From: an uncultured bacterium
Lineage (GTDB): Bacteria; Hydrothermota; UBA3073; NMUJ01; CBEVQO01
Length of the DNA: 64,000 nt
Reading direction: 5' to 3'
Assembly (NCBI GenBank): GCA_965552055.1
Contig: CBEVQO010000004.1
Coordinates: forward strand, 160,001 to 224,000
Part shown: piece by piece, positions 1,798 through 61,219 of the stretch
Layout of the letters: each line of letters starts with the position of its first letter
How positions within the stretch are numbered: the stretch's first letter is position 1
Notes under the pieces: model-generated
What the model saw: the letters and a program-made list of their open reading frames with translations, nothing else
Told to the model about the DNA's origin: nothing
Database searches by the model: none
Translations under genes and position numbers: made by a program

Positions 1798-2876
1798 AAA
1801 TATTGATAATAGGACCAACCCCTCCGCCATACTTTGGAACAGCTGTGGCGACACAAAAGATATTACAAAATGAAAAATTAAATAAAAAATTCGATTTATT
1901 GCATCTTGATACATCGGATAGAAGGGGAGTCGAGAATATAGGGAGATGGGATTTGCAAAACATTAAACTTGCCATTTTTCACATTTTAAAATTATTTCTG
2001 TTGCTTCTGAAGAAAAAAGTAAATCTTACATACATCCCGATTGCCCAAAATGTACCCGGTTTTTTGCGAGACGGGATTTTTATTCTTATAAGCAAGCTTT
2101 TTGGCAAAAAAGTAGTTTGTCATCTCAGGGGAAGTTATTTCAGGGATTTTTATGAGAGAACAAATTCCATTATGCGATTTTATATAAAGTTCTGTCTGAA
2201 AAAAGTCGATAGAATGATAGTATTGTGCGAAAGGTTGAAGAAAATTTTTAGTGGTCTCATAGATGATAAGAAAATATCCGTGGTGCCGAATGGTTTACCC
2301 GTTAGGGAATTAATAAGGAGAAAAGGTGAGCATTTTTTATATTTAAGTAATCTTTCTGCAGGTAAGGGGGTATTCTTTGCATTGAATGGCTTAAAAATTC
2401 TGGATAAAGATTTGCACTTTAAGTTTATATTCGCAGGCAACTGGCGTAACTCATATGATAAGAAGAGGGCGATTGAGATTATAAAAAGTTTTAAAAAAAT
2501 CGATGTGCAACTGGTTGGTGCAGTGAAGGGCGAAGAAAAATCGGAATTGATGTCGAAATCCATAGCTCTTATTTTTACTCCTGTTCATAAAGAAGGTATG
2601 CCATGGGTGATAATAGAGGCACTCTCCTATGGTTTACCCATTATTTCGACAGATAGAGGGTGTATCCCAGATATGGTAAAGGATGGTGAAAATGGTTTTA
2701 TAGTGAAGGATGAGAAAGATCTGGCAGAAAAGATAAAGATATTGCTGGAGAATGAAGAATTAAGGGAAAAAATGTGCAGGAAATCGCGAGAGATTTTTTT
2801 AAATTATTACAATGAGGATAAAAGTATGGAGAAGTTTATCGAAGTTTTTCACTTGACTTTTTCATCAAAAGGATAA
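1782..2876 (+). CDS. Glycosyltransferase family 4
   Basis: GT-B motifs VVPNG and EGMPWVIIEALSYGLPIIST (EX7E). Confidence 0.9.
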   Translation: MREKIKILIIGPTPPPYFGTAVATQKILQNEKLNKKFDLLHLDTSDRRGVENIGRWDLQNIKLAIFHILKLFLLLLKKKVNLTYIPIAQNVPGFLRDGIFILISKLFGKKVVCHLRGSYFRDFYERTNSIMRFYIKFCLKKVDRMIVLCERLKKIFSGLIDDKKISVVPNGLPVRELIRRKGEHFLYLSNLSAGKGVFFALNGLKILDKDLHFKFIFAGNWRNSYDKKRAIEIIKSFKKIDVQLVGAVKGEEKSELMSKSIALIFTPVHKEGMPWVIIEALSYGLPIISTDRGCIPDMVKDGENGFIVKDEKDLAEKIKILLENEELREKMCRKSREIFLNYYNEDKSMEKFIEVFHLTFSSKG

Positions 2877-2879
2877 AAT
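2853..2879 (+). promoter_or_regulatory. sigma70-like promoter TTGACT-N15-TAAAAT
   Basis: Boxes read directly; GTG start lies 6 nt after the -10 box. Confidence 0.6.
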
Positions 2880-2885
2880 AATATA

Positions 2886-3635
2886 GTGAAAGTGGCACTG
2901 ATTAGTGATTTTCATGGCAAGGAAGAATATCTGGAGAAATTTATTAATGCTATAAAGTCAGAGAGTCTTGATTTTATCATATTTTGTGGTGATGTGGTTA
3001 AGGGTTTTGTCAGGGGTGACGAGTGGCTCAGTGCCCGTTCAGATGGCAGGTGTCCTGATAAGAATAAAAAAGAAATATGGGATTCTTTTTCGGAAGATAA
3101 ATATTTTTATGATAAATTTTTCGGTGAATTAGACAAACTTGGTTTGCAGGTACTTGTGGTGCATGGAAACATGGATGCTCCTGTTAAATATTTTGAAGAA
3201 GCAGTTGATAAATATCCCAACATTTATAATTTGCATTGTGCTGTTTATGGTTGGAAAGATTGGGTATTTTTTGGATTCGGGGGAGAGATTACCGAGTCGG
3301 AATACGAAGATTTTTTCGTCAATGTGTATCCGAGAAAGATGATAGAGAAAGCTTTTTTGAAGATGAAAGATGTTAGATTAAAAAAAATATTCGTTACGCA
3401 TACTCCTCCTGTATCAAGAGCAGGTACAGAACCTCAGGGGTATAAAGGATGCGAGATTATAAATGAGATTATTCTGAACTATAAACCTGTTTTTCATTTC
3501 TGTGGTCATGCTCATAAAGCCCGTGGACAGGATAAAATAGGAGAAACAGTTGTGGTGAACCCTGGACCCCTGAAATACGGATATTATGCGATTTGCGATG
3601 TTGAAAAGAAGGAGGTAAAATTTTTGACTCTTTAA
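2886..3635 (+). CDS. Calcineurin-like metallophosphoesterase (Icc-related)
   Basis: Motifs SDFHG, CGDVV, HGNMD, THTPP and CGHAH. Confidence 0.88.
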   Translation: MKVALISDFHGKEEYLEKFINAIKSESLDFIIFCGDVVKGFVRGDEWLSARSDGRCPDKNKKEIWDSFSEDKYFYDKFFGELDKLGLQVLVVHGNMDAPVKYFEEAVDKYPNIYNLHCAVYGWKDWVFFGFGGEITESEYEDFFVNVYPRKMIEKAFLKMKDVRLKKIFVTHTPPVSRAGTEPQGYKGCEIINEIILNYKPVFHFCGHAHKARGQDKIGETVVVNPGPLKYGYYAICDVEKKEVKFLTL

Positions 3636-3655
3636 ACACATTTGCTAAAATATTA

Positions 3656-3850
3656 TTGCTTTTTGGTATCTTTTTGATTTTTACTTCTGGTATTCTATTT
3701 TTGCTTGGTAAAACAGGTGTTAACTTTCCGCGTTTACCGGGTGATATTTACATAAAGCGTGAAAATTTTGTTTTTTATTTTCCCATTGTTAGTTGTGTTA
3801 TTTTGTCTTTACTTTTGACTCTTATTTTAAATCTTTTGTGCAGGAGATGA
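3656..3850 (+). CDS. DUF2905-like small membrane protein (start uncertain)
   Basis: RLPGDIYIKRENFVFYFPIVSC signature between two hydrophobic helices. Confidence 0.8.
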   Translation: MLFGIFLIFTSGILFLLGKTGVNFPRLPGDIYIKRENFVFYFPIVSCVILSLLLTLILNLLCRR

Positions 3851-4902
3851 TACCTGAGAGTTTATTTTTTATAGTGTCGAAATATTTTGAAGTCGAAAGT
3901 GTTCATTACTCTGGAGAAAGGCTTTCTTTCTTTGGGCGACCGATCGGTGACCCTGATGAATCTTTTGATAATATTTATCGTGAGATAAGAAAGTTTGATT
4001 TCATTCCTGCTTTTTTCAAAAAAGATGGACATATAGAATTGAGGATTGTAAAATTTTCGCCCGTTAAAGCGGGTAATCACAATGTGAATCTCATATTGCT
4101 TTTTCTTACTGTTATCACAACAGTGCTTGCCGGTGTTATGCTTTCTGGCAAAAGTCCGTTAATCATAAAGAACTGGATTTATGGTATTCCTTATTCAATA
4201 GCGATAATGACAATACTTGGAGCACATGAGCTCGGGCATTATTTTGCCTGCAAAAAATATGGTGTAAGGGCAACTCTTCCTTATTTTATTCCTGTGCCTA
4301 CTTTTGTAGGGACATTTGGTGCAATAATAAGGATAAAATCGCCGATTCCAAATAGGAGAAGCTTAATGGTGATAGGAGCCAGCGGACCTTTTATTGGTTT
4401 ATTCTTTGCAATACTTTTTACAATAATAGGTTTAAAACTGTCGAAAGTGGTTCCGCGTACAGGGGCAGGGTTATCGCTTGGTAGTTCTTTACTTTTTTCT
4501 TTTTTATCGAAAATGGTTTATCCTGATGTTCCCGCGGGCATGACGATAGCTTTAAATCCACTTGCTTTCGCTGGCTGGCTCGGTATGTTTGTCACCGCTA
4601 TGAATCTATTGCCTGTTGGTCAGCTAGATGGCGGACATATTGCTTATTCTTTATTCGGGGAAAAACAAAGATATTTCTCTTTACCTGTTATAGCTTTATT
4701 GATTTATTTTGGGATAAAATACTGGGTGGGATGGTTTTTATGGGCACTTTTGCTTGCATTTCTCGCAGGGGTAAGACATCCCCCAACTTTAAATGACCTC
4801 AGCAAACTAAAACCGGCTCACAGGATAATGGGAATAGCTGGATTTATCGTGCTTATTGTAACATTTATTCCTTCGCCATTTCCTGGTGTGAAACTGGGAT
4901 GA
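3847..4902 (+). CDS. Site-2 protease (M50 intramembrane zinc metalloprotease)
   Basis: HELGH and NLLPVGQLDGGH motifs, multiple TM segments; ATG at 3847 overlaps the upstream stop. Confidence 0.92.
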   Translation: MIPESLFFIVSKYFEVESVHYSGERLSFFGRPIGDPDESFDNIYREIRKFDFIPAFFKKDGHIELRIVKFSPVKAGNHNVNLILLFLTVITTVLAGVMLSGKSPLIIKNWIYGIPYSIAIMTILGAHELGHYFACKKYGVRATLPYFIPVPTFVGTFGAIIRIKSPIPNRRSLMVIGASGPFIGLFFAILFTIIGLKLSKVVPRTGAGLSLGSSLLFSFLSKMVYPDVPAGMTIALNPLAFAGWLGMFVTAMNLLPVGQLDGGHIAYSLFGEKQRYFSLPVIALLIYFGIKYWVGWFLWALLLAFLAGVRHPPTLNDLSKLKPAHRIMGIAGFIVLIVTFIPSPFPGVKLG

Positions 4903-5783: not shown

Positions 5784-5784
5784 A
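5762..5784 (+). repeat. 23-bp direct repeat copy 1 (ATTAGTGGGAGAGGAGATATGAA)
   Basis: Exact match to 7455-7477; contains the purC 3' end, the RBS and the next ATG. Confidence 0.9.
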
Positions 5785-6823: not shown

Positions 6824-7476
6824 ATGTATTATGCCAAATAAATGACTTTAAAAAAGCAATTAATGAAATAATAGAACTTTTAGATTGTGAAAAGTTAAAT
6901 TTGGAAAGAGGCGTAGAATTTACTGATGAGATAAAAGAAATAAAATCTTTTTTTGTTTTCTTAAAAAATATATCTAAAAAAGCAAATTCTTATGAAGAGC
7001 TCATAAAAATTCTTAATGAAAGTAAAGAAATTGATAAAAGATTTTTAGGTTTTTTAGGAAAAATTTTAGATATTATTCAAGTTTTAAAAGAAGGAAGCGA
7101 ACGAAACAGGAAAATAAGGTCGGAGATAATTAAGAATTTAGAAGAAACAGGGCACTGGAGAGAAAGTATGAGAATAAGAATAGAAAGATATCATAAAGAA
7201 TTAATCGAAGCAATTGTTATTTACAATATTTTGGAAATAGCTTATTTTATCGGGGAGAAAAAAGAAAGCAGGTTAGGCAAACCGCTACAAAAAAAATTTG
7301 AAGAATATGAAGATTGTTTAATATTTATACCACATGTAAAAGAAAATGTTAAACAGATAAATGAAAAAGATGAAATTATCATTCCTCAGGAGGTTTTAAA
7401 AACAAAGATAAAGTTTGAGGATTTTGAGAATTTGCCGGCAGATGATTTAATCAAATTAGTGGGAGAGGAGATATGA
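6820..7476 (+). CDS. Hypothetical protein coupled to the methyltransferase
   Basis: 218-aa ORF with ATGA overlaps at both ends; no recognisable motif. Confidence 0.7.
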   Translation: MNVLCQINDFKKAINEIIELLDCEKLNLERGVEFTDEIKEIKSFFVFLKNISKKANSYEELIKILNESKEIDKRFLGFLGKILDIIQVLKEGSERNRKIRSEIIKNLEETGHWRESMRIRIERYHKELIEAIVIYNILEIAYFIGEKKESRLGKPLQKKFEEYEDCLIFIPHVKENVKQINEKDEIIIPQEVLKTKIKFEDFENLPADDLIKLVGEEI

Positions 7477-12825: not shown

Positions 12826-12853
12826 ATTATACTTAAAATTTTAAATTTGTCAA
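12826..12853 (-). promoter_or_regulatory. sigma70-like promoter TTGACA-N16-TATAAT
   Basis: Consensus boxes directly upstream of the ATG ATG at 12823/12820. Confidence 0.65.
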
Positions 12854-12865
12854 CACTTTTTTATC

Positions 12866-12892
12866 TTGACAATTTTAATTTTCATTTAAAAT
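12866..12892 (+). promoter_or_regulatory. sigma70-like promoter TTGACA-N15-TAAAAT
   Basis: ATG at 12898 lies 5 nt after the -10 box; no Shine-Dalgarno. Confidence 0.65.
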
Positions 12893-24378: not shown

Positions 24379-24405
24379 TTGACAAAAAAACGAGTATATT
24401 AAAAT
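24379..24405 (+). promoter_or_regulatory. sigma70-like promoter TTGACA-N15-TAAAAT
   Basis: Followed by a GGGGG RBS and ATG at 24419. Confidence 0.65.
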
Positions 24406-26949: not shown

Positions 26950-26976
26950 TTGACTTTTTAATTTTTTGCATAAATT
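26950..26976 (+). promoter_or_regulatory. sigma70-like promoter TTGACT-N15-TAAATT
   Basis: ATG at 26982 lies 5 nt after the -10 box. Confidence 0.55.
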
Positions 26977-26981
26977 AAAAG

Positions 26982-27365
26982 ATGGGGAAAGTGGTGGAGA
27001 AGATAAAATTAAAAAATTTATTTGAGCCAGAGAAATCTGTGGAAGTGGATGCAGTCATAGATACAGGTGCAACAATGTTAGTTTTGCCTCAGGATATAGT
27101 AGAAAAGCTCGGCTTGCAAAAAGTAGATGAGAGAAGAGTGAGATACGCAAATAACCAAATTCAAATAAGACCTATTTACAGGGGCGTAATACTTGAACTA
27201 AAAGGCAGAGAAGGAATATTTGATGTGCTGTGCGAGGTAAAGGTCGCAGAACCACTTGTTGGACAAATAGTATTGGAAACTTTAGACCTAATAGTTGACC
27301 CTATCACAAAAACAGTGAAACCAAATCCAAAATCACCAGATATGCCCACGGCAGAGATACTTTGA
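26982..27365 (+). CDS. Clan AA (retropepsin-like) aspartic protease
   Basis: IDTGAT catalytic motif and PLVGQIVLE. Confidence 0.88.
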   Translation: MGKVVEKIKLKNLFEPEKSVEVDAVIDTGATMLVLPQDIVEKLGLQKVDERRVRYANNQIQIRPIYRGVILELKGREGIFDVLCEVKVAEPLVGQIVLETLDLIVDPITKTVKPNPKSPDMPTAEIL

Positions 27366-27568: not shown

Positions 27569-28637
27569 TTTAGGGAAAAATTTTTGTGGCTTTGACCCCT
27601 ATGATGGTATTTTTTGTGATTTGGGTTGCAAAATTTTGCGTCAAATCTCGCAACAGACAATCAAATTATCACCCATAAATTTCAGGAAAGCACTTTTAAT
27701 AAAAGAAAAAGTACATCCAAAAACTCTTGCGCTATTTTCAATGGGTTTATCAAATCTTTATGAAGTTTTAAAAGAAGAAAAATGTTTGGAACTCGCAGAA
27801 AATTTATTGATAAAATTAAAAGATTTAAAATCAAAGTATTTTCCGGAGTATTGCTGGGGGCATACTTTTGCGTGGCAAACAAGGGAAAAACTTATTCCTG
27901 AAAATTATCCAACTGCCGTAAATACCGCTATCTGTGCATCTGCATTTCTCGATTTTTATAAGCACAAAAGAAAAAAAGATTTTATCGAGATAGCAAAAAG
28001 TGCAGGTGATTTTTTGATGAAAAGGTTAAATATTAAAGAAGATAGATTTTATTTGAGTTATACTCCCATTGATAGAAATTTCGTTCATAATGCAAATTCT
28101 TTATCTGCTGGTTTTTTATGCAAATTGTTTCATTATACAGGAGAGCAGGAATATTTGAATTTTGCAGAAAAAGTGTTTGATACACTTATTTTTTATCAAA
28201 ATTCTGATGGCGGATGGAATTATGGTTTAGCACCTTATCAAAGGTGGATTGATGGCTTTCATACTGGTTTTACGCTGTGGGGTCTAAAATGGGCATTGGA
28301 ATACGGAGGCACTGCGAAATATCAGGAAAATTTATCAAAGGGATATGTTTTCTACAGGGAAAAATTATTTGAGGCTGATTTCCCAAAATATTATTTGCAT
28401 AAGTTTTATCCCACTGATTCTCATAATCTTGCTGTTGCAATCATTATCCTGTGTGAATTTAGGGAGATAAAAACTGCACTTGACATTGCAAGGTGGGTGA
28501 TAGACAACTTTTATTGTTCATCAGGCTATTTTTATTTTCGTGATTATGGCTTTTACAGGATAAAAATACATTATCCGAGATGGAGTGATGCATGGCTTTT
28601 TTATTCTTTTTCTCTGCTTTTAAAAGAAATTATTTGA
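27513..28637 (+). CDS. Alpha/alpha-barrel protein of polysaccharide clusters (GFDPYDG family)
   Basis: GFDPYDG, WGHTFAWQ, VHNAN, QNSDGGWNYG and WIDGFHTG. Confidence 0.75.
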   Translation: MESMQEEIKRLLLKILNFNLGKNFCGFDPYDGIFCDLGCKILRQISQQTIKLSPINFRKALLIKEKVHPKTLALFSMGLSNLYEVLKEEKCLELAENLLIKLKDLKSKYFPEYCWGHTFAWQTREKLIPENYPTAVNTAICASAFLDFYKHKRKKDFIEIAKSAGDFLMKRLNIKEDRFYLSYTPIDRNFVHNANSLSAGFLCKLFHYTGEQEYLNFAEKVFDTLIFYQNSDGGWNYGLAPYQRWIDGFHTGFTLWGLKWALEYGGTAKYQENLSKGYVFYREKLFEADFPKYYLHKFYPTDSHNLAVAIIILCEFREIKTALDIARWVIDNFYCSSGYFYFRDYGFYRIKIHYPRWSDAWLFYSFSLLLKEII

Positions 28638-28660
28638 CATTATGAGGATATGAATATATT
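28634..28660 (+). promoter_or_regulatory. sigma70-like promoter TTGACA-N15-TATATT
   Basis: Upstream of a GGGGGTG RBS and ATG at 28674. Confidence 0.6.
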
Positions 28661-28976: not shown

Positions 28977-31550
28977 ATGAAGTCAAATGAATTTCGCAGA
29001 ATATTTCTTGAATTTTTTAAAGAAAGGGGGCACAAAATTTGTCCTTCTTCTCCTTTGATTCCCCGTGACCCCACGCTTTTATTCACATCGGCTGGTATGG
29101 TGCAGTTTAAACCTTTATGGTCAGGAGAATCTCCCCTTACATTCAGGCGAGCCACTTCCTGTCAGAAGTGCCTGAGAGCAACAGATTTGGAACAGGTAGG
29201 TTTTACTCCCCGTCATCTTACATTTTTTGAAATGCTTGGTAATTTTTCTTTTGGTGATTATTTTAAACTGGAAGCGATAAAATGGGCTTGGGAATTCGTT
29301 ACAGAAGTTATGAAACTTCCCAGAGATAGATTGTATATCTCTGTTTATGAAGAAGATGAAGAGGCATATAATATCTGGCGCGATGAGATAGGCATTTCTC
29401 CTGACAGGATTTATAAGTTTGGCAAAGAGGATAATTTCTGGGGACCTGCGGGTGATACAGGACCTTGTGGTCCCTGCACTGAAATTTTTTACGACCTCGG
29501 AGAGGAGATAGACCCCGGTAAAACAATTGCAGATGATAGTGATAGATATTTCGAAGTCTGGAATTTAGTTTTTCCTCAATATGATGCCCAGAAAGATGGT
29601 ACATTAAAACCTTTGAAAAACAGGGGAGTTGATACAGGTATGGGACTTGAGCGCGCACTTTGTGCAATGCAGGGTAAAAAAACAGTTTTTGAAACTGATG
29701 TTTTCGAACCAATAATTCAAAATATAGAAGATGAAATAAAAATTAAATACTTTGAAAAAAGAAAAATGTTCAATATAATAGCCGACCATATAAGGGCTTT
29801 GACATTTGCCATTTCCGAAGGTGTATTTCCGGGCAATACCGGCAGGGAGTATGTGATTCGCAGGATATTGCGTCGTGCAGTAAAAGAATATTATGATGCA
29901 GGGATTAAGGGACCTTTGCTTTATAAGTTTGTAAAATCTGTGGTTGATGTTATGGGTGATGCTTATCCCGAAATAAAAGGGAAAGTTGAGAGTGTATCTC
30001 TTGTCATAAAAGCTGAAGAAAAGCGTTTTCTTGATACCCTCTCAAGGGGCAAAGTCATTTTCACTGTTATAAGCAATAGTTTGAAAGAAAAAGGCAAAAG
30101 AGAATTTCCGCCAGAAGAGGCATTTAAACTTTATGATACCTATGGATTTCCTTTTGAATTAACAGAAGAATATGCGAAAAAGGAAGGTTTTGAAATTTCC
30201 CGCGAGAAATTTGAAAAATATCTTGAAAAACAAAGGGAACTTGCAAAGCGTTATGCGAAATTTAAAGCGGAAAAATTCGAGTGGAATATTTTGAAGGAAA
30301 TCGAAAAAGATGAATTTGTGGGATACAATACTTTGAAAATAGAAAGCAGGATTTGTATGTGGCGTAAAGATGATAAAAAATACTATTTAATACTTGAAAG
30401 AACTCCGTTTTATGCAGAAGAAGGAGGGCAGGTTGGAGATACGGGCAGGATTTATAATGATGATATGGAATTTATCGTTGAGGATACGCAATATTTTGAC
30501 AAATACAGGATGCATATCGGTATTTTGAAACAGGGGCAAATTACGGAAAGGGAAGTTATCTGTGAAGTTGATAAGGAGAGGCGTTTGTCGATTCAGCGCA
30601 ATCACACTGCTACTCATTTATTGCAATCTGCGTTAAGAAAGGTTTTGGGCGAGCATGTTCATCAGGCAGGTTCACTTGTTGCACCGGATAGATTGAGATT
30701 CGATTTCACACATTTTTGCAAACTCGAAAAGTTTGAGGTTGATAAAATAAGAGAATTGGTTAATGAATGGATAATGCAGGATGTTGAAGTTTTAACTTAT
30801 AATAAGAAATATTTTGATGCAATTGCAGAAGGTGCAATTGCTTTACCTGGAGCACAGTATGGAGAGATTGTAAGAGTTGTTGATATTAAAGGAATTTCAA
30901 AAGAATTATGTGGAGGTACTCATTGTAGAAGAACAGGTGAAATTGGCTTTTTTGAAATAATAGAAGAAAGTGCAATACATGCAGGTGTTAGAAGAATTGT
31001 TGCTCTAACGGGATTTTCCTTTTTGAATTTTTATCTTGACAATCAGCGGATTTTATTAAAATTGGCAAATATGATGGGTGTGGATGTTAATAATGTCCTT
31101 AAAAAAGTAGAGGGGGTCTTAAGTGAAAGAGATTTGCTCGAAAAAAAGTTAAATGAAGTTATGCGCGAAATGATTAAGTATAAGGCAAATGAATTGAGGG
31201 AGAAAAGCAAAAAGGTAAATGGAGTTGAAGTTATAATGTCTGAAGTATCTTTTGATGATATTGAATATGTGAGGTCTTTTGCTGATGTTTTGAGGAAAGA
31301 AAACAGTGTAGGAGTACTTGGATTTAAAAAGGGAAATAAACCTTCATTTATTGTTTTTGTAGGTGATAAATTGAAAGATAAGTTGAAAGCAGGTGATCTT
31401 GCTCGTGAACTGGGTAAGCTTGCAGGTGCAGGTGGAGGTGGCAAGCCCCACATGGCTCAGGCAGGCGGAGCAGTAGGAGCAGAGGTATCAAAAGTGTTGA
31501 AAGAATTTGAGAAAATAATAATTGATAAGATTAAAAAGTTAAATGTTTGA
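28977..31550 (+). CDS. alaS: Alanine--tRNA ligase
   Basis: LFTSAGM, HLTFFEMLGNFSFGDYFK, DTGMGLER, editing NHTATH/ELCGGTH and GGGGKPHMAQAGG. Confidence 0.98.
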   Translation: MKSNEFRRIFLEFFKERGHKICPSSPLIPRDPTLLFTSAGMVQFKPLWSGESPLTFRRATSCQKCLRATDLEQVGFTPRHLTFFEMLGNFSFGDYFKLEAIKWAWEFVTEVMKLPRDRLYISVYEEDEEAYNIWRDEIGISPDRIYKFGKEDNFWGPAGDTGPCGPCTEIFYDLGEEIDPGKTIADDSDRYFEVWNLVFPQYDAQKDGTLKPLKNRGVDTGMGLERALCAMQGKKTVFETDVFEPIIQNIEDEIKIKYFEKRKMFNIIADHIRALTFAISEGVFPGNTGREYVIRRILRRAVKEYYDAGIKGPLLYKFVKSVVDVMGDAYPEIKGKVESVSLVIKAEEKRFLDTLSRGKVIFTVISNSLKEKGKREFPPEEAFKLYDTYGFPFELTEEYAKKEGFEISREKFEKYLEKQRELAKRYAKFKAEKFEWNILKEIEKDEFVGYNTLKIESRICMWRKDDKKYYLILERTPFYAEEGGQVGDTGRIYNDDMEFIVEDTQYFDKYRMHIGILKQGQITEREVICEVDKERRLSIQRNHTATHLLQSALRKVLGEHVHQAGSLVAPDRLRFDFTHFCKLEKFEVDKIRELVNEWIMQDVEVLTYNKKYFDAIAEGAIALPGAQYGEIVRVVDIKGISKELCGGTHCRRTGEIGFFEIIEESAIHAGVRRIVALTGFSFLNFYLDNQRILLKLANMMGVDVNNVLKKVEGVLSERDLLEKKLNEVMREMIKYKANELREKSKKVNGVEVIMSEVSFDDIEYVRSFADVLRKENSVGVLGFKKGNKPSFIVFVGDKLKDKLKAGDLARELGKLAGAGGGGKPHMAQAGGAVGAEVSKVLKEFEKIIIDKIKKLNV

Positions 31551-37363: not shown

Positions 37364-37390
37364 AAAATAATGAAATATGGTTTTCGTCAA
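37364..37390 (-). promoter_or_regulatory. sigma70-like promoter TTGACG-N15-TATTTT (rpsA)
   Basis: Boxes read on the minus strand upstream of the rpsA RBS. Confidence 0.5.
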
Positions 37391-38272: not shown

Positions 38273-39478
38273 TTAATATATCTCTTTTTTGGTTTTGTCA
38301 ATTCTTTTTACCTCTCCTGCTTTTTTAATTGCCCATTTTGTGAGTATGGGACCTACGAATTCCGTTACTATTGTTGTCCCAAGTGCTATTGCTATTATTG
38401 TATCTCCAACCTGTGGAAATTCTTTTGCTGCGTAAAGGCATAGACCTATTGCTATCCCTGCCTGTGAAAATAATCCAAAGCCCGTGTATTTGCGAAGAAC
38501 AGCAGGCGCTTTTCCAATAACTGCACCAAAAAATGCACCAAAGATTTTACCGCTGAATCTACAAAGTAAGTAAACAAGAGCAACGAGACCCAGTTTCATC
38601 AACAGATGAATATTCAGGCGCGCACCAGCAAGCACAAAATAAATTACATAAAAGGGAAGTGAGAAATTTTCAAAAACAGTGAAAACAGTTCCCCTGCGTA
38701 CAGAATAATTTGAGACTATAAATCCGAGCATCATTGCACATAAAAGAGGAGAAAAGCGAATACCCCATGGTTTAGTCTGCAATAAGCCAGAAAACAACAT
38801 TATGGTGCCGATTGTGACAACAAGAACATTTAATGGGTCTTTTACTTTTCTTAAAATAAAAAGAAGTAAAATCCCGGAGAGCCATCCTGTAAAAAGCGAG
38901 AAGAATATCCCCGCTATAATTTTTAATAGTAAAATTCCGAAAGATATTTTCAATTTATCAAAAGCAATATGTGCGATTGATGCAGAAATCGAATAGAGCA
39001 TGAGACCTATTGCGTCATCCATACCGACGCAGGCAAGGAGAGTTTGGGTTAAAGGACCTGATGCCCTGTATTCCGCGAGCACCATAACGGTTACTGCAGG
39101 AGCAGTTGCGCAGCCAATAGCCGCAATTAAAAGCGAAAGCGGTAAAGATAAATGGAGCAAAAACATACCAATAAAGAGGAATAAAAATGTAAATAATGTC
39201 TCAAAAATTATTATTAAAATTAAAGGTTTACCAAGTCTTTTAAAAGTCGAAATCTTCAATTCCATTCCGACATTGAATGCAACAAGCAAAAGAGCGAATT
39301 CAATGAGCCATGTTAATTCAAGGTTCAATTCAAGTGGAATTAATTTTAAGAAAGATACACCAAAAGCAAGTCCAATTAGAATATATCCCGTTACCGTTGG
39401 AAATTTTAATTTAGAAATAAATTTGCCAGCGAAAAATCCAAAGAATAATATTATACCTATTGCAAGAATTTCACTCAT
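38273..39478 (-). CDS. Cation:proton antiporter (CPA2)
   Basis: PTVTGY, ATAPA, GMDDA and SQAGIAIG; multiple TM helices. Confidence 0.88.
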   Translation of the reverse strand: MSEILAIGIILFFGFFAGKFISKLKFPTVTGYILIGLAFGVSFLKLIPLELNLELTWLIEFALLLVAFNVGMELKISTFKRLGKPLILIIIFETLFTFLFLFIGMFLLHLSLPLSLLIAAIGCATAPAVTVMVLAEYRASGPLTQTLLACVGMDDAIGLMLYSISASIAHIAFDKLKISFGILLLKIIAGIFFSLFTGWLSGILLLFILRKVKDPLNVLVVTIGTIMLFSGLLQTKPWGIRFSPLLCAMMLGFIVSNYSVRRGTVFTVFENFSLPFYVIYFVLAGARLNIHLLMKLGLVALVYLLCRFSGKIFGAFFGAVIGKAPAVLRKYTGFGLFSQAGIAIGLCLYAAKEFPQVGDTIIAIALGTTIVTEFVGPILTKWAIKKAGEVKRIDKTKKEIY

Positions 39479-40608
39479 TTGAATAATAGCCTGAGAAGCA
39501 AAGGAGTAAATATTGCCGTCACCAGCGATAAAATTACGGTTAACGAGAATTCAAAATGACCTATTAGATTTTTTGAAAGCCCGATAGATGCGATTATCAA
39601 AGCTACTTCGCCTCTGGGTACCATTCCTACTCCGATTCTCAAAGATGTTTTTGCAGGCAGCTTTGCTATTTTCGCACCAAGTCCGCATCCTATTATTTTG
39701 CTCATTATAGCGATTAAAATAAAACAAATGAGGAATAAAACATTGCCCGAAATTTTGTGAATTTGTGCTTTTAAACCTATGTTTGTGAAGAAAACAGGGA
39801 CAAATAGACCATGAGCCATTGCTTCTAATTCTCGCATTACTTCTCTTCTCATCTCCCTGCTTGAAAAAAGTCCAGCAAGATATGCTCCTGTTATTTCTGC
39901 TATGCCCATAGATTTTGCGAACCATGCATAGAAGAGCACGGTAGATAGTGCTATCGCAATAGTTGCACGAGAAGCACGCAAGCGCTTTGAAAATTTATAA
40001 GAACGACGAACGAGAAAAAAACCAAGAAAAGATGCTATAACAAAGAAAATTATCATCTTTGCGAAAGAGATAAAAATACGGGTTTCTTTTCCAATTAAAC
40101 TTAAAACGAATGCTAAAAGTATAACAGAGAGTGCATCGTCAATTACCGCAGCAGATAAAATTGTCCTCCCTTCGATTGTTTCGAGTTTTTTAAGGTCATA
40201 AAGTGTCATCACAGTGATTGCCACAGAAGTTGCAGTTAAAATTGTGCCAAGGAAAAGTGACTTATTTACTTCAAAGCCAAAACTTCTTGCAATACAGAAA
40301 CCAAGAAAAAAAGGAAGCACCACTCCCCATATAGCCGTTGTAAAAGATATGCGAGCTTCTTTGCGTACCTGAGCAATATCGGTTTCGAGACCAGCCATAA
40401 AAAGTAAAAGTATCGCTCCAATCTCTGAAAATACTTCAATAACTTCGTTGGAACGCAAAAATTTAAAACCAGATTCCCCGAGAATTAATCCTGTAAGTAA
40501 TAGACCAAAGACAGGTGGTTGTTTTATTTTTTCACAAAAATGTGATACGATTTTCGAAAGAAAGATGACGACCGCAAGCTCAAATAATATGTTTTTCAAC
40601 CCATACAT
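39475..40608 (-). CDS. Cation:proton antiporter (CPA2, NapA/KefB-like)
   Basis: GLETD, ATSVAIT, AAVIDD and GMVPRGEVALI. Confidence 0.9.
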   Translation of the reverse strand: MYGLKNILFELAVVIFLSKIVSHFCEKIKQPPVFGLLLTGLILGESGFKFLRSNEVIEVFSEIGAILLLFMAGLETDIAQVRKEARISFTTAIWGVVLPFFLGFCIARSFGFEVNKSLFLGTILTATSVAITVMTLYDLKKLETIEGRTILSAAVIDDALSVILLAFVLSLIGKETRIFISFAKMIIFFVIASFLGFFLVRRSYKFSKRLRASRATIAIALSTVLFYAWFAKSMGIAEITGAYLAGLFSSREMRREVMRELEAMAHGLFVPVFFTNIGLKAQIHKISGNVLFLICFILIAIMSKIIGCGLGAKIAKLPAKTSLRIGVGMVPRGEVALIIASIGLSKNLIGHFEFSLTVILSLVTAIFTPLLLRLLFK

Positions 40609-41026: not shown

Positions 41027-41053
41027 ATGATAATCATTTTGCTGATATGTCAA
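41027..41053 (-). promoter_or_regulatory. sigma70-like promoter TTGACA-N15-TATCAT
   Basis: ATG at 41020 lies 6 nt after the -10 box. Confidence 0.6.
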
Positions 41054-41083
41054 GGGATAAATTTTATAAATTCAAAAAAATGC

Positions 41084-41110
41084 TTGACATCTTCTTATTG
41101 TCTATAAACT
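41084..41110 (+). promoter_or_regulatory. sigma70-like promoter TTGACA-N15-TAAACT
   Basis: Upstream of the AAGGAGG RBS of kbl. Confidence 0.6.
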
Positions 41111-45717: not shown

Positions 45718-45745
45718 ATTATAACCAGAAATAAAATTTTGTCAA
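45718..45745 (-). promoter_or_regulatory. sigma70-like promoter TTGACA-N16-TATAAT
   Basis: Consensus boxes; GTG at 45713 lies 4 nt after the -10 box. Confidence 0.62.
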
Positions 45746-46450: not shown

Positions 46451-46477
46451 TTGACAGATTGATTGTGTGATTAACAT
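46451..46477 (+). promoter_or_regulatory. sigma70-like promoter TTGACA-N15-TAACAT
   Basis: Divergent intergenic region; an alternative CATAAT at 18-nt spacing also exists. Confidence 0.45.
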
Positions 46478-53246: not shown

Positions 53247-53685
53247 TATCCCCTCCTTTATTTTTATCCTTAATGGATAATTTTTCGATTATAAATTTGG
53301 CTTCTTTAACTCCGATTTTTATAATCCTTGCATCATTACCGCCATTATAATAGCCATAGGAATGTATTACATCCCATACTGTGTCAAATGCATCAATAAT
53401 TTTGCCATCATGAACGGGATATTTTTTCAATATTCCCCAATAAGCATCTGTTGTTTTTGGTAAATTTTCATATTTTACTCCTCTTTTCATCAAATAACCA
53501 TCAATTGCAGATAGCACAGCTAACCACATCAATCCACATGCTTTTTGAACTTTTTTAATATTTGAATATCTATCGTTTTTTACTTCTATTTCATTTAAAA
53601 TTTCCTTTGCATTTTCAAAATATTCATTCGCTATTTTAAAACATTCTTCAGGTGTTTTCTTTTTTCTTTTCCATTTTATTTTCAT
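53239..53685 (-). CDS. DUF5618/HEPN-like helical protein
   Basis: YFENAKEIL...[14 protein letters not shown]...IHSYGYY, resembling HEPN/PaREP1-like proteins. Confidence 0.6.
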
Positions 53686-54783: not shown

Positions 54784-54810
54784 ATTTTAATCTGTTCCTT
54801 AATTTGTCAA
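54784..54810 (-). promoter_or_regulatory. sigma70-like promoter TTGACA-N15-TAAAAT (buk)
   Basis: Upstream of a GAGGGGG RBS. Confidence 0.62.
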
Positions 54811-54822
54811 TTATTTTTTGAC

Positions 54823-54849
54823 TTGACAAATTAAAATTTTCAATATAAT
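54823..54849 (+). promoter_or_regulatory. sigma70-like promoter TTGACA-N15-TATAAT (tRNA-Leu)
   Basis: Perfect boxes ending 8 nt before the tRNA 5' end. Confidence 0.7.
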
Positions 54850-54857: not shown

Positions 54858-54941
54858 GCCGAGGTGGCGGAATTGGTAGACGCACCAGTTTGAGGGACTG
54901 GGGCCCGTATGGGCGTGCAGGTTCGAGTCCTGTCCTCGGCA
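54858..54941 (+). tRNA. tRNA-Leu (anticodon GAG), CCA not encoded directly after the discriminator
   Basis: Acceptor stem GCCGAGG/CCTCGGC-A, D-loop GGAATTGGTAGAC, anticodon arm CCAGT-TTGAGGG-ACTGG, long variable arm and GTTCGAGTCC. Confidence 0.96.
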
Positions 54942-54949
54942 CTCCATTT

Positions 54950-55173: not shown

Positions 55174-55200
55174 ATATTAACCCTATTTTAAAAATGTCAA
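55174..55200 (-). promoter_or_regulatory. sigma70-like promoter TTGACA-N15-TAATAT
   Basis: Upstream of an AAGGGGGAG RBS and ATG at 55159. Confidence 0.5.
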
Positions 55201-55321: not shown

Positions 55322-55348
55322 TTGACAAAACAATTATTCGATTAAAAT
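55322..55348 (+). promoter_or_regulatory. sigma70-like promoter TTGACA-N15-TAAAAT
   Basis: ATG at 55355 lies 6 nt after the -10 box. Confidence 0.65.
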
Positions 55349-55354
55349 TATTGA

Positions 55355-56332
55355 ATGGTTAATCTTAAAAATATATTGGATAGTTTAGACGCCGGAATAA
55401 TGATTACCGATATAAATTTAAACATAAATACAGTTAACAAAGCTTTACTAAAAATGTTAAAAAAGCAATCCAGCGAATTGATCAATAAAAATTTGCTTCA
55501 AATACCCTTTTTAAAAGATCTGGAAAAAGAAGATGTTATCAGGATTAAGCTGGAAGACAATTCTTATTTAGTTAAGAAATTGCCCATTACCGAAGGAGGA
55601 ATTAATCTGGGTTTCCTTATAATTTTTAACGATATAACAAAGGAAAAAGAAAGGACAGAAAATATAATTTTTGATTTTATCACCAAAGTATCACATGAGA
55701 TGCGCACACCTTTATCTGTTATGAAAGGTTATATTACAATGATGCTCACAGACCCAACGATAACAAAAGAAGAAAGAAAAGAAATTTTAAAGACGATGGA
55801 GAAAGAATGTGAGAGATTGGAAAGGATTATTGAAAATGTGCTCGATACTGCCAGAATAGAAACAGGACAAATTAGATATAAACCCCAAAAAATTAATTTG
55901 AAAGATACATTATCACATACAATTTCTCTATTTGATAGAAAGATAAAGGAAAAGAATTTAAGTTTTGAAGAAAAGATAGAAGATATAGAAATTACGGCAG
56001 ACCCCACTCTTTTATCTCAGGCAATTTTGAATTTGCTTGATAATGCGATAAAATTTACTCCTGCAGGTGGCAGAATATGGCTTCATGCACAAAGAAGCGG
56101 TAATCAGGTGAGAATAGAAGTAGGGGATACCGGTTCGGGCATTCCCAGAGATATTTTACCCAATATTTTTGATAGATTTTACAGGGCAGAAGATAAAGCT
56201 CATACATTGCCAGGCTTGGGGCTCGGACTTTACATAACAAGGGAAATAGTAGAAATGCATAGAGGCAGGATAGAAGTAGAAAGTGAAGAAGGTAAGGGGA
56301 CTGTTTTCAGAATTTACTTACCTTATGAATGA
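55355..56332 (+). CDS. Cytoplasmic PAS-HisKA-HATPase sensor kinase
   Basis: PAS-like N-terminus, SHEMRTPL, NLLDNAIKF, DTGSGI and GLGLGL; no TM segment. Confidence 0.92.
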   Translation: MVNLKNILDSLDAGIMITDINLNINTVNKALLKMLKKQSSELINKNLLQIPFLKDLEKEDVIRIKLEDNSYLVKKLPITEGGINLGFLIIFNDITKEKERTENIIFDFITKVSHEMRTPLSVMKGYITMMLTDPTITKEERKEILKTMEKECERLERIIENVLDTARIETGQIRYKPQKINLKDTLSHTISLFDRKIKEKNLSFEEKIEDIEITADPTLLSQAILNLLDNAIKFTPAGGRIWLHAQRSGNQVRIEVGDTGSGIPRDILPNIFDRFYRAEDKAHTLPGLGLGLYITREIVEMHRGRIEVESEEGKGTVFRIYLPYE

Positions 56333-57958: not shown

Positions 57959-58893
57959 ACATAGTTAATCTCAATCAGAAAGAACTTTTGAGAAAATGTC
58001 TCAAATCACTTGAAAAGAATTGCAAAGGGATGGATTATGAAGTATATGTGGTGGATAATGGCTCTGATGATGGAAGTCAGGAGATGATAAAAAATGAATT
58101 TAAGAAAGTAAAGTTAATTGAAAACAATGAAAATATAGGTGTGAGCAAAGCAAGAAATAAGTCCTTAAGATTATCTGCCGGAAATTTTATTCTTTTGATG
58201 GATAATGATGTAGAGTTGCTTAACGATTCTTTAAAATTGATGCTGGATACTTTAAAAGGGGATGAGCGTGCAGGAGCAGTAACCTGTCAGATTTTGAATC
58301 CAGATAAAACGATAAGACCTTCCCACAATGACCGCTTTCCGAATTATTTTGATGTATTTTTTGACATGCTCTTCTTCTGGTCGAATATAAAAAGTTTCTT
58401 CTGGAAATCAAAATTGTTTATGAAATACCTTTTCCCTTTGCTATTCAGATGTTATTTTAAAAAACATTATATAGCATGGACGGGTAATATGTGTTTATTG
58501 ATTAAAAGAGAGATTCTGGAAAAAATAGGTTTAATGGATGAGAATTTTTTCATCTATGGGGATGATATTGATTTTTGTATGAGAATTAAAAAAGCAGGTT
58601 ATAAAATTTTGTTTTTGCCTTCGGCACAGGCTATACATCATATTGGAAAAGTTGTTTTAGAAAGGAAAGACCTTTATCCTGAAATCATAAAATCTAAAAT
58701 TTATTTTTTCAAAAAGCATTACAGGAAAAGTATTGCAAAAGCAGTTGAAAAAACAATTTTTTATGGGATAATGTTGCGTAAATTTATCTTAAGTTTTCTT
58801 TTCAAGGTAAGGAGGGATGAGCGATGTCAGAAGAGGTTAAAGTCGTATTGTACGCTGATAGCACTGGCAAAATCAAAGGCGGTGGTCAACTGA
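57943..58893 (+). CDS. Glycosyltransferase family 2
   Basis: VVDNGSDD, DND and YGDDIDFC. Confidence 0.9.
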   Translation: MEISVNIVNLNQKELLRKCLKSLEKNCKGMDYEVYVVDNGSDDGSQEMIKNEFKKVKLIENNENIGVSKARNKSLRLSAGNFILLMDNDVELLNDSLKLMLDTLKGDERAGAVTCQILNPDKTIRPSHNDRFPNYFDVFFDMLFFWSNIKSFFWKSKLFMKYLFPLLFRCYFKKHYIAWTGNMCLLIKREILEKIGLMDENFFIYGDDIDFCMRIKKAGYKILFLPSAQAIHHIGKVVLERKDLYPEIIKSKIYFFKKHYRKSIAKAVEKTIFYGIMLRKFILSFLFKVRRDERCQKRLKSYCTLIALAKSKAVVN

Positions 58894-59930
58894 GTTTATA
58901 CCATCTTATAAAAAGATTAAATAGAAAAAAATTTGAGCCACAGGTAATTTTACCAGAAAAAGGAGAATTTTATGAAATGTTAAAAGAACTTGGTATAAAG
59001 ATACATCTTGTAAAAATGCGGGAAATAAGAAAAGGTAATATTGCGGATATTATGAAGACTTCTTTTGATATAGCGAAGATAATAAAGAAAGAAAAGGTTT
59101 CTTTAATTCATGTAAACAGTTCTCGTTCAGCGATTTACTGCGGGATTGCAGCTAAAATCACAAGGATACCTTTAATAACACATATAAGAGTGATTCAGAG
59201 AGAGCCTCTCTATGACTGGGTTATCGCTTTTTTATCCACAAAAATAATAGCAATTTCAAAAGCAGTAAGAAAAAGATTTGATTACCTATCGGATAAAAAA
59301 GTTAAAATAATTTATAATGGCATTGATGTAAATGAGTTTAAACCAGGAGGTGAGAAAAAGTTAAAAAGAGAATTAAATTTGAAAGATGAATTTTTACTTG
59401 CTTCGGTAGGGAATCTAAATCCCTATAAAGGGCATGATTATGTAATAATGGCGTTTAAAGAAGTAAAGGCTAAGATAAAGAAAGTAAAGTTAGTAATATG
59501 TGGTGAAGGTGAACAAAAATCATATTTTATGAGATTATCAAAAAGGTTAGGATTATCTCAAGATGTCATATTTCTCGGGAGAAGACAGGATATTGTTGAT
59601 GTAATGGATTCTATTGATGTTTTTTTGATTTCTTCTTTTTCTGAGCCTTTTGGCAGGGTAATTTGTGAGGCGATGGCATGCGAAAAGCCAGTGGTAGGTG
59701 TTAAAGCAGGAGCAATTCCAGAAATAGTCGAAGACGGTAAAACCGGTATTTTATGTAAACCAAAAGATATAAAAGAGTTTGCAGAGGCTATAATAAGACT
59801 TTTGAAAGACGAAAAATTGAGAAAAGAGATGGGAAAAAGGGGCAGAGAAAGGGTTGAAAAATTTTTTACAATCGAGCGAAATGTAAGAGAGATTGAGAAC
59901 TTATATGATGAAATCTTAAAATGTTGTTAA
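58824..59930 (+). CDS. Glycosyltransferase family 4
   Basis: IYNGID, KGH and EPFGRVICEAMAC. Confidence 0.92.
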   Translation: MSEEVKVVLYADSTGKIKGGGQLSLYHLIKRLNRKKFEPQVILPEKGEFYEMLKELGIKIHLVKMREIRKGNIADIMKTSFDIAKIIKKEKVSLIHVNSSRSAIYCGIAAKITRIPLITHIRVIQREPLYDWVIAFLSTKIIAISKAVRKRFDYLSDKKVKIIYNGIDVNEFKPGGEKKLKRELNLKDEFLLASVGNLNPYKGHDYVIMAFKEVKAKIKKVKLVICGEGEQKSYFMRLSKRLGLSQDVIFLGRRQDIVDVMDSIDVFLISSFSEPFGRVICEAMACEKPVVGVKAGAIPEIVEDGKTGILCKPKDIKEFAEAIIRLLKDEKLRKEMGKRGRERVEKFFTIERNVREIENLYDEILKCC

Positions 59931-61171
59931 TTCTTGGTGGAGGATTAACGGGGTTAAGTACAGGTTATCATTTGAAAAAGAAAGGATTCGAAGATTTTTT
60001 AATAATTGAAAAAGAAGAAAAACCGGGTGGACTTTGTAAGTCCTATTTTAAAGATGGATTTACTTATGACTACGGAGGGCATTATTTACATTTTCGAACC
60101 GAATATGCGGAAAATCTTGTAAAAAATTTGTTGAAAAATAATTTGAAAAAACACGAAAGAAAATCCGTGATATATATAGATGGGAAGTTTATACCTTATC
60201 CCTTTCAACGAAATTTAAGAGGATTATCTTTTAAAAAAATATCAGAATGTCTATTTGGCTTAATTTTTGCCAGATTACAGAGGAAAAAAGCTTTGAATTT
60301 TAAAGACTGGATAATCCAAAATTATGGCTATGGGATGGCGAAATATTTTTTTATCCCGTATAATGAGAAGCTGTGGGGTGAACTCACTGAAATAACAACA
60401 GAATGGACAAAAAGATTTGTACCCGATACTTCTTTTTTAAAAATTTTAAAAAGTTTAGTGAAACCCGATTTAAAAGCAGGATATAATCCTGAATTTTATT
60501 ATCCCGAAAGGGGAGGGATACAGGTATTGACTGATAAAATTTTTGAATACATAAAAGACAAAGTGAAGCTTAAAGAAAAAGTGGTAGAAATTGATATTGC
60601 CAAAAAGGAAGTGAGAACAAATAAAGGAATATATACTTACGAAAAATTGTTGAATACGATTCCTTTACCCGAATTTTTAAGGATTTTGAAAAATGTTCCT
60701 TTTCAATTTAAAGAAATAGGTGGAAAGTTGAAATGTGTAAGCGTTTATGTTTATTGTATAGGTTATAGGGGAAAAACGCCACCTTATCACTGGATATATG
60801 TACCGCAAAAGGAATTTAAATTTTACAGGGTGGGATTACACAGTAACATTTCTGCGAATCTTTCGCCCGAAAATTGGCAGGCTATCACATGTGAATCGAG
60901 AGAAAATTTGAAATTTGACGAAATTATAGAAGGACTCAGAAAAATGAGGGTTATAGGAGAAGGAGAAACAAAAGATAACGGCAAGCTTTTTATAAAATAT
61001 GCATATGTTATATATGATGAGTATCGCAGGTATTTATCTTTTGTTTTTTCTTTTTTAGAGAGTAAAGATGTCTTTTGTGGTGGACGCTTTGGTAGATGGG
61101 AATATTCAACGATGGAAGATTCTTTAATCTTTGGTAAAAATTTTTCGGAATTTTACTTGAGAAATCCATAG
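59921..61171 (+). CDS. FAD-dependent oxidoreductase (UDP-galactopyranose mutase/HemY-like)
   Basis: GGGLTG, GGLCKS, DYGGH, YNEKLWG, FYYP..GG and GRFGRWEY. Confidence 0.82.
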   Translation: MLLILGGGLTGLSTGYHLKKKGFEDFLIIEKEEKPGGLCKSYFKDGFTYDYGGHYLHFRTEYAENLVKNLLKNNLKKHERKSVIYIDGKFIPYPFQRNLRGLSFKKISECLFGLIFARLQRKKALNFKDWIIQNYGYGMAKYFFIPYNEKLWGELTEITTEWTKRFVPDTSFLKILKSLVKPDLKAGYNPEFYYPERGGIQVLTDKIFEYIKDKVKLKEKVVEIDIAKKEVRTNKGIYTYEKLLNTIPLPEFLRILKNVPFQFKEIGGKLKCVSVYVYCIGYRGKTPPYHWIYVPQKEFKFYRVGLHSNISANLSPENWQAITCESRENLKFDEIIEGLRKMRVIGEGETKDNGKLFIKYAYVIYDEYRRYLSFVFSFLESKDVFCGGRFGRWEYSTMEDSLIFGKNFSEFYLRNP

Positions 61172-61192
61172 TTAAATTTTGCATTAAAAAGC

Positions 61193-61219
61193 TTGACAGA
61201 CTTTTATTTTGATTATAAT
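61193..61219 (+). promoter_or_regulatory. sigma70-like promoter TTGACA-N15-TATAAT
   Basis: Perfect boxes; ATG ATG at 61223/61226. Confidence 0.7.

Follow-up and report, generated by a model that had tools for sequence, protein, structure and literature searches.

The promoters described here lie on a stretch of DNA of 64,000 nucleotides (nt) (the window: contig CBEVQO010000004.1, positions 160,001-224,000, of assembly GCA_965552055.1; all site coordinates are window positions), and they combine the two hexamers of the bacterial housekeeping promoter, i.e. TTGACA and TAnnnT, with a spacer of 15 nt (N15; other spacers are denoted accordingly). The canonical sigma70/SigA promoter consists of TTGACA and TATAAT at a distance of 17 bp (PMC11156646, PMC12641261). 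We find that the 15-nt geometry is a real variant of the housekeeping promoter, shared by the whole of one small order and, among the genomes searched, restricted to it; a takeover by a short second sigma factor is tentatively proposed as its cause. Judged from their sequence, the N15 pairs are very probably housekeeping promoters with a true shortening of 2 bp.

The window's own genome (G000; 2.23 Mb on 15 contigs, 35% GC, 97% complete) stems from a likely heat-loving organism and can be affiliated with WOR-3 via named homologues, namely a sigma factor RpoD that is identical to the one of G023 and sits in a WOR-3-labelled cluster, and one homologue of its short second sigma factor (sig2), which is labelled WOR-3. 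The order comprises four genomes: G000, which is alone in its family, and the three of the sister family f2 (G001, G070 and G202, with completeness across the three of 66, 87 and 99%). G000 and f2 are sisters in a tree of RpoB and RpoC (FastTree support 0.995). As related genomes are not independent, the order-wide N15 trait counts as one evolutionary event.

A first-pass annotation of the window had listed 14 N15 and three N16 sites, all of which indeed read as claimed, and had singled out two perfect TTGACA-N15-TATAAT pairs, which are found at +54823 (before the tRNA-Leu gene at 54858) and at +61193. Its observation that a spacer of 17 nt gives no TAnnnT at the nine plus-strand sites it checked extends to that entire strand of the window, where TTGAC[ATG]-N17-TAnnnT does not occur, and its description of the sites as intergenic is correct for most but not for a few that reach into the 3' end of the preceding open reading frame (ORF), covering its final codons (e.g. 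+2853 and +28634). Over both strands, TTGAC[ATG]-Nx-TAnnnT is present 18 times with N15, three times with N16 and once with N17, and at most three times with each of the other spacers between 10 and 19, whereas block shuffles of the window (n=300) yield 3.5 N15 matches on average and 9 at most. Four of the N15 matches were not among the 14 listed (-38301, +31036, -53387 and -40142), and the first of these looks like a real promoter, given its position just upstream of a gene with a Shine-Dalgarno (SD) sequence.

The same spacing prevails throughout G000. The perfect pair TTGACA-Nx-TATAAT occurs 7, 121, 27, 7 and 4 times for N14 to N18, respectively, and TTGACA-Nx-TAnnnT occurs 45, 416, 93 and 106 times for N14 to N17 and about 40 times at other spacers. 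The vast share of the N15 matches (376 of 416) is non-coding according to crude, self-made ORF masks. Within the non-coding segments 336 N15 matches compare with a mean of 4.2 and a maximum of 6 after dinucleotide shuffling (n=20), and when TTGACA is kept fixed and the downstream 30 nt are shuffled (n=200) the mean is 36 and the maximum 53, versus 376 observed. Put differently, 376 of the 685 non-coding TTGACA hexamers have a box at 15 nt and 55 more have one at 16 nt. Both the genome-wide spacer histogram and the AT-matched background that had been proposed as checks therefore speak for the 15-nt geometry: the histogram peaks at 15 and not at 17, and the N15 excess survives the shuffle controls. 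The N17 excess is mostly a +2 shadow of N15 boxes (TAATTT in 32 and TAATAT in 21 of 89 cases), the 11 unshadowed N17 TAWAAT sites are largely repeated elements that carry a near-box at 15, and no separate 17-nt promoter class was found in G000. Much of the residual N17 class stems from two families of repeats, probably mobile, with four promoter-bearing members each (G000:C1:379337, 340322 and 281212; C6:20570; C2:13686; C3:55162; C7:29437; C9:28375).

The consensus in G000 consists of an A/T tract, C-TTGACA, a T-rich spacer that ends in T-G-A-T, and TAWAAT. The -35 element is canonical, with TTGACA in 376 of the 431 non-coding TTGAC[AT]-N15 sites, and so is the TAnnnT of the -10 element, most often TAAAAT (141/430) or TATAAT (125/430), with an A at hexamer position 4 in 82% of the sites and a fixed final T at position 6; the spacer falls outside the canonical 17 +/- 1 bp. 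The classical TGn extended -10 motif is lacking: of the 430 sites, 5% have TG at -3/-2 and 30% have it at -4/-3, compared with 65% and 0%, respectively, for 31 N17 sites in G065, and the share with a G is 51% for position -3 and 18% for position -2. Relative to the classical extended -10 motif, the G of T-G-A-T is shifted upstream by one base, and T-G-A-T is absent in G001, where the box is TAnnTT (TATTTT being the commonest form) and a G precedes TTGACA. Within G000 we did not find two promoter classes, one per sigma factor, and sites with A or T at position 5 of the hexamer are alike with respect to the G at -3, the C before the -35 element and the leaderless ATG (Fisher p 0.91, 0.08 and 0.70). 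Since the sites form one class, either one sigma factor dominates or both read alike.

The position of the genes downstream provides proxies for the start site. An N15 match precedes 20 of the 47 tRNA/tmRNA genes, usually at a distance of 6-9 nt from the tRNA, and N17 alone precedes one of the 47; two N15 matches lie ahead of the 16S gene, the second of which can also be read as N18. Among the 416 sites, ATGs that open ORFs of at least 80 aa are found 5 nt (87), 6 nt (47), 7 nt (25) and 8 nt (18) past the hexamer, and TTGAC without any condition on the -10 element peaks at -32/-33 from the ATG (1649 ORFs). The ATGs at 5-6 nt would represent leaderless starts, and the predicted starts thereby fall on the 6th-7th base past the -10 box, in line with the start position expected by the first-pass annotation. 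Because the predicted leaderless ATGs peak 5-6 nt past the hexamer, the spacer appears to be truly shortened rather than the -10 box mis-set. A G precedes the predicted leaderless ATG in 107 of 120 cases at offset 5 and in 45 of 62 cases at offset 6, versus 78 of 386 SD-led starts (examples in the window at 26977-26984 and 55349-55357). The base before +1 is usually a pyrimidine, and transcripts may here start one base early as G-AUG, that G itself being +1.

The distribution of the trait was derived from a phylum sample of 201 genomes for which N15 and N17 were counted (tables read by eye); the N16 counts cover the class plus five further genomes. The three genomes of the order in this sample all peak at 15 (TTGACA-TAnnnT N15/N17 of 416/106 in G000, 99/26 in G001 and 89/20 in G070). 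The non-coding N15/N16/N17 counts of G001 are 64/30/7 (755 kb of 1.4 Mb), and those of G202 are 9/5/1 among the 38 matches listed, counted by eye. N17 exceeds N15 in 196 of the 198 other phylum genomes, and the exceptions (14/14 and 17/15) are near control level. Spacing varies within the class: family f4 is strictly 17 with TANAAT (e.g. 7 N16 versus 277 N17 sites in G055), and families f5 and f6 (G022, G090, G100, G201, G040 and G050) are split between 16 and 17 with TANAAT, N16 being at least as frequent as N17 (e.g. 100 versus 45 in G050). A peak at 15-16 in f3, obtained with strict TANAAT, was dropped in view of the TAnnnT counts (N15/N17 of 69/178, 47/160 and 63/171). Five genomes of f20, f28 and f30 have no clear TTGACA-TAnnnT peak at 15-18 (N15/16/17/18 counts of 14/21/14/21 in G136, 12/24/28/36 in G144, 19/31/27/21 in G113, 17/8/29/14 in G150 and 28/26/31/21 in G116) and may use another -35 element; a peak at 18 was not seen in these five genomes lacking a clear 17 peak.

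One predicted site type each for FliA-type and ECF-type (extracytoplasmic function) sigma factors keeps its usual spacing. In the flagellin site of G000, which is located on C4 near 7027 and not in the window, TTAAG and GTCGAAAT are 14 nt apart, the same spacing as in E. coli FliA sites (PMC4183435). The site before the ECF-type sigma factor gene of f2 reads AACTT-N17-TCTAA, as does the site before the ECF gene of G100 (outside the order), a second site in G001 agrees, and the spacing equals the preferred sigmaE spacer of 16 (PMC1312014). Genome-wide FliA and ECF promoter scans gave no spacing peak, so that only gene-anchored single sites were usable, and a flagellin for comparison was not found in any relative. 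Because the FliA-type and ECF-type sites retain canonical spacing, the cause looks specific to a sigma factor rather than a global shift. Among 272 phylum genomes flagellin is found only in G000 (C4:7113-7937), which also has a flagellar cluster (C1:473664-494896) and FliA.

G000 has six region-4 matches, namely RpoD (P0001), sig2, FliA and three smaller proteins. Sig2 counts 265-272 aa and is without region 1.1 (gene on G000:C5); P0128, which is 96% identical to it, contains the domains r1.2, r2, r3 and r4 only. In f2 the sigma-70-family factors found are sig2 and one ECF factor (G001, G070 and G202; loci L033-L039, L093 and L094), and RpoD was not found in any of the three genomes using P0001, TIGR02393, Sigma70_r2 and Sigma70_r4 as queries; the N15 promoters of f2 are therefore most simply read by sig2. 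In G202 (C8, L033; genome 66% complete) the sig2 frame stops at 196 aa and region 4 follows in another frame, which is probably an assembly error. Within f2 dnaG was found in G001 and G070, and in both the next gene on the contig is unrelated to rpoD, whereas G000 has dnaG-rpoD. RpoD was found in 216 of the 226 phylum genomes that are at least 85% complete, the ten misses being both f2 genomes and eight scattered ones. A search for related loci with RpoD yielded five distant, uninformative ones only.

RpoD of G000 (C7:57373-59100, directly after dnaG) is of full length, with regions 1.1, 1.2, 2, 3 and 4. DLIQEG, the Trp pair and TRERIRQIE are preserved in it, and so are the core-binding and -35 helices. 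Its sequence is that of a fast-evolving protein. Across 119 homologues, 105 columns are 95% invariant, and it breaks 27 of these, versus 10-18 in 15 class relatives, and ten of these departures cluster in region 2.4 and the linker between regions 2 and 3; the broken columns include T440, R441 and E458 (E. coli numbering), which we take to contact -12/-13 and the extended -10 element. In region 3.0 a Glu has become Asn and the helix has a deletion of one residue, and there are two single insertions around the finger. Identity to class members is 0.481 versus 0.637, a drop of 0.16 where RpoB, RpoC and sig2 drop by 0.03-0.04; the terminal branch of 0.79 is about 1.4 times the core branch, compared with ratios of 0.3-1.0 in six other lineages; and the score against TIGR02393 (284.8 bits) is below the cut-off of 354. 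The protein apparently has two region-1.1-like repeats and a finger that is one residue longer and without the usual acidic run.

We lean, with only slightly more confidence than doubt, towards the reading that sig2, a short group-2-like sigma factor, took over housekeeping transcription from RpoD in the ancestor of the order. On an otherwise ordinary core, sig2 would hold region 4 about 2 bp nearer to region 2. The chain from the Trp pair of region 2 to the region 4.2 helix is 2-3 residues shorter than in RpoD and could draw region 4 in: the length from the Trp pair to ERxRQ is 152 in 113 of 119 RpoD homologues, 153 in the RpoD of G000 and 149-151 in 11 sig2 proteins of the class. Chain length need not set the distance between sigma2 and sigma4 on the core, and the link with the spacing is one that we infer. 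Once sig2 had become primary, promoters would have been selected at 15 nt, with a start predicted some 32-33 bases away from the T that opens TTGACA, and RpoD would have drifted afterwards (G000) or have been lost (sister family). The full scenario, in which the order swapped its housekeeping sigma factor for a short, RpoD-independent one with a true 15-bp spacer on an ordinary core and re-spaced all promoters, with G000 as an intermediate with a decaying RpoD and f2 as the state in which RpoD is lost, is put forward tentatively, as somewhat short of an even chance. Presence of sig2 by itself was rejected as a predictor of N15, since 21 of the 22 class genomes carry it.

A takeover by sig2 has several observations to contend with. 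The eight f4 genomes have no N15 class (14-39 versus controls of 9-53) despite the presence of sig2 in nearly all of the class, and in the Bacteroidota-labelled look-alikes of sig2 the chain is not short (mostly 153). In addition, G000 has TAWAAT and a C before TTGACA, as in the RpoD-bearing G065 and G050, where G001 has TAnnTT and a G; the boxes being different, the two sig2 orthologues, which are 46% identical, would have to read different boxes. RpoD of G000 is intact, in its operon and in possession of its core-binding and -35 helices, and its region 3.0 changes fit the loss of TGn and the shifted G. Finally, the absence of RpoD in f2 rests on incomplete metagenome-assembled genomes, RpoD also being missed in 8 of 223 other genomes, and the FliA and ECF controls comprise one site type each, of predicted sites only.

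These observations partly feed the principal alternative, which we hold to be rather unlikely, namely that a remodelled RpoD is still primary in G000 and reads the 15-nt promoters, its region 2.4-3.0 changes being adaptive and creating T-G-A-T, with sig2 having converged in the sister family or both sigma factors having co-adapted in the ancestor. The RpoD-like flanks of both elements in G000, the intact gene, operon and helices, the clustering of the RpoD departures in the DNA-facing segment, the preference for a G at -3 over -2 where the region 3.0 Glu has been replaced, and the lack of a separate N17 regulon remaining for RpoD would all follow. The sister family, however, has the same spacer and no RpoD was found in it, so that two sigma factors must have changed alike, and the chain of the G000 RpoD is not shorter than usual (153 versus 152).

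A single event that covers both families, whichever sigma factor they use, would be a core enzyme in which small changes in the flap or zipper bring region 4 of group 1 and 2 sigma factors nearer by 2 bp. In an alignment of 16 RpoB and 17 RpoC rows from the 19 class genomes with matches (excluding RpoB of G015 as well as the incomplete genes of G080 and G085), the order shares a Lys-to-Arg substitution in the flap arm and a Glu-to-Asp substitution beside the zipper, in columns that are invariant in the other aligned class members, and f4, the strict-17 family, has the longest insertion after the flap. Yet both substitutions are conservative and represent two of 34 such columns listed, the flap insertion is short in f3 as well, which has its mode at 17, and the alignment contains no order-specific indels in the beta flap, the beta' zipper or the zinc-binding domain; with the FliA-type and ECF-type sites at canonical spacing, we consider a change of the core improbable. 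The first-pass annotation had proposed an altered geometry between regions 2 and 4 in the primary sigma factor or RNA polymerase of this lineage; of this, a 15-nt geometry of the housekeeping promoters across the lineage is supported, and a cause in the RNA polymerase core is so far not.

DNA topology is a still weaker candidate. Reverse gyrase together with a non-supercoiling gyrase could over-twist the chromosome, and 15 bp would then reach the angle for which 17 bp are needed elsewhere. G000 (C4:82901-86113), G001 and G070 carry reverse gyrase, which was absent from all 17 further class genomes in the search. The sole GyrA/ParC match in G000 (C1:27269-29566, L190; below the gyrA cut-off) is without the GyrA-box, with a 9-residue gap relative to G001, G070 and G050. 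This box is required for supercoiling, and Aquifex aeolicus has been called the only known organism without a supercoiling gyrase (PMC8216471), of which G000, by its sequence, is likely a second, Aquifex-like example. The N15:N16 peak is also sharper in G000 (431:64) than in G001 (64:30). Nevertheless, as a sole cause reverse gyrase was rejected, because N17 exceeds N15 in 42 of the 44 reverse-gyrase genomes outside the order (read by eye). Besides, the ECF-type and FliA-type spacing is unchanged, spacer length is of minor importance for supercoiling sensitivity in E. coli libraries (PMC8695583), and 2 bp would need about 12% more twist by our own estimate. Topology may sharpen the peak in G000, but it cannot be the shared cause of the order's trait since G001 and G070 keep the GyrA-box (QRGGKG) and still peak at 15; as an explanation of the spacing it is very improbable.

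About as improbable is a register artefact, in which the melted A would be the fourth base of TAWAAT and the true distance the usual one. The frequent A at position 4 of the G000 hexamer would allow this, and there is a precedent in sigmaB of Staphylococcus aureus, where the spacer of about 14 bp is a register effect, -11A being the fifth base of the box (boxes GTTTWW/GGGWAW; PMC11156646). The order's promoters are like those of sigmaB in that an apparently short spacer is combined with a sigma-70-family factor and an ordinary core. Unlike sigmaB, which is a stress and not a housekeeping factor, they have TTGACA/TAWAAT boxes, and their start proxies imply a true shortening: a shifted register would put the start about 8 nt past the hexamer, where there are 18 ATGs against the 87 and 47 at offsets 5 and 6, and the peak of TTGAC at -32/-33 from the ATG is at odds with it as well. 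Moreover, TATTTT, the commonest box in G001, has no A at position 4, and it is the final T at position 6 that is fixed. That the pairs are a regulator binding site or a compositional artefact instead of a promoter read by a sigma factor can practically be set aside, as the motif is directional and stands at a fixed distance ahead of ATGs and of 20 of the 47 tRNA/tmRNA genes, with two copies ahead of 16S, its counts are far above those of shuffled sequence, and the genome has no alternative 17-nt class.

Within the window, four plus-strand N15 sites are followed by a predicted leaderless start: TTGACT-N15-TAAAAT at 2853..2879 (in-frame GTG 6 nt past the hexamer, 249-aa ORF), TTGACA-N15-TAAAAT at 12866..12892 (ATG at 5 nt, 317-aa ORF), TTGACT-N15-TAAATT at 26950..26976 (G-ATG at 5 nt, 127-aa ORF) and TTGACA-N15-TAAAAT at 55322..55348 (G-ATG at 6 nt, 325-aa ORF). 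An SD or SD-like sequence intervenes at TTGACA-N15-TAAAAT, 24379..24405 (+; G run, ATG at 13 nt, 800-aa ORF), TTGACA-N15-TATATT, 28634..28660 (+; ATG at 13 nt), TTGACG-N15-TATTTT, 37364..37390 (-; ATG at 21 nt, 539-aa ORF), the newly found TTGACA-N15-TATATT, 38275..38301 (-; within the last codons of the upstream ORF, ATG at 13 nt, 172-aa ORF), TTGACA-N15-TAAACT, 41084..41110 (+; ATG at 19 nt, 391-aa ORF) and TTGACA-N15-TAAAAT, 54784..54810 (-; ATG at 13 nt). An ATG follows TTGACA-N15-TATCAT at 41027..41053 (-) after 6 nt and TTGACA-N15-TAACAT at 46451..46477 (+) after 7 nt, and TTGACA-N15-TAATAT at 55174..55200 (-) has an SD-like run downstream and no ORF of at least 80 aa within 120 nt. The perfect pair at 54823..54849 (+) ends 8 nt before tRNA-Leu(GAG) (54858..54942, +), whose 5' end bounds the start site, and the one at 61193..61219 (+) has the TGAT motif ahead of its -10 box. 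The N16 sites, which belong to the shoulder of the spacer distribution, are TTGACT-N16-TAAAAT at 3624..3651 (+) and TTGACA-N16-TATAAT at 12826..12853 (-; ATGs 2 and 5 nt past the hexamer) and 45718..45745 (-; GTG at 4 nt). The N15 matches at 31036..31062 (+, in an 857-aa ORF), 40116..40142 (-) and 53361..53387 (-) lie inside ORFs and are probably due to chance, about 3.5 chance matches being expected per window. Back-to-back divergent pairs are found at 12826-12892 (the sites at -12853 and +12866), 41027-41110 (-41053 and +41084) and 54784-54849 (-54810 and the tRNA promoter), with -35 boxes 13-31 bases apart.

E. coli RpoS, a group 2 sigma factor, reads RpoD-like boxes with a different spacer preference and tolerates non-17 spacers. 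Unlike such a broader tolerance beside a dominant RpoD, the whole genome of G000 is sharply at 15. With the sigma70/SigA promoters those of the order share the two hexamers, the upstream A/T tract, the T-rich spacer and the location before rRNA, tRNA and protein genes; they differ from these in the mode of 15 in G000 (121 versus 7 perfect boxes), in the G at -3 instead of TGn, and in the leaderless ATGs 5 nt past the hexamer, mostly after a G. Spacers of 15 bp are functional in E. coli, where they form the tail of a 15-21 range with an optimum of 17 (PMC8695583). A survey of 49 species found 17 bp to be predominant and the start centred 7 bp past the -10 element; the training of its model on E. 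coli favours 17, and the lineages in its legend include no WOR-3 (PMC12641261). We did not find a lineage with a 15-bp housekeeping mode in the open-access literature searched, nor anything on WOR-3 promoters or sigma factors, and PMC2412878 yielded nothing on Aquifex spacing.

The nearest parallel at the level of the sigma factor is provided by the Bacteroidota, of which the primary sigma factor (sigmaABfr) is without region 1.1 and reads promoters with -33 TTTG and -7 TAnnTTTG (PMC12632263, PMC7366714). Common to both is a short sigma factor without region 1.1 as primary factor where classical RpoD is absent, a role that we propose here for sig2 in f2, and the -10 box of G001 leans to TAnnTT. 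On the other hand, the -35 element is TTGACA in both G000 and G001, no TG follows the hexamer, the sig2 chain is 3-4 residues shorter and G000 keeps RpoD. Most named homologues of sig2 are primary-type sigma factors from Bacteroidota of 288-289 aa (41-43% identity), which share with it a Phe in region 2.1 and RQIK in region 4.2. Although its best named matches are from Bacteroidota, sig2 is not sister to the Bacteroidota clade in an unrooted tree of 46 rows.

It is customary to regard a spacer of 17 +/- 1 bp as an invariable trait of housekeeping holoenzymes. An order with the same boxes and a sharp peak at 15, next to relatives at 16-17, makes it testable, through exchange of sigma factors, linkers and cores, what sets the distance between sigma2 and sigma4, and as such would provide a natural test of the ruler of RNA polymerase. 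Prediction tools whose prior is set at 17 bp will overlook the 15-nt promoters. Should the takeover by sig2 be true, then a few residues of the linker between sigma regions 3 and 4 would be that ruler, and a transcription system that uses the same boxes and is orthogonal in spacing would be possible, such that a sigma factor of this kind could provide spacing-orthogonal expression. The order would then likely represent a second case, beside the Bacteroidota, in which RpoD has been replaced by a short sigma factor, with the intermediate preserved.

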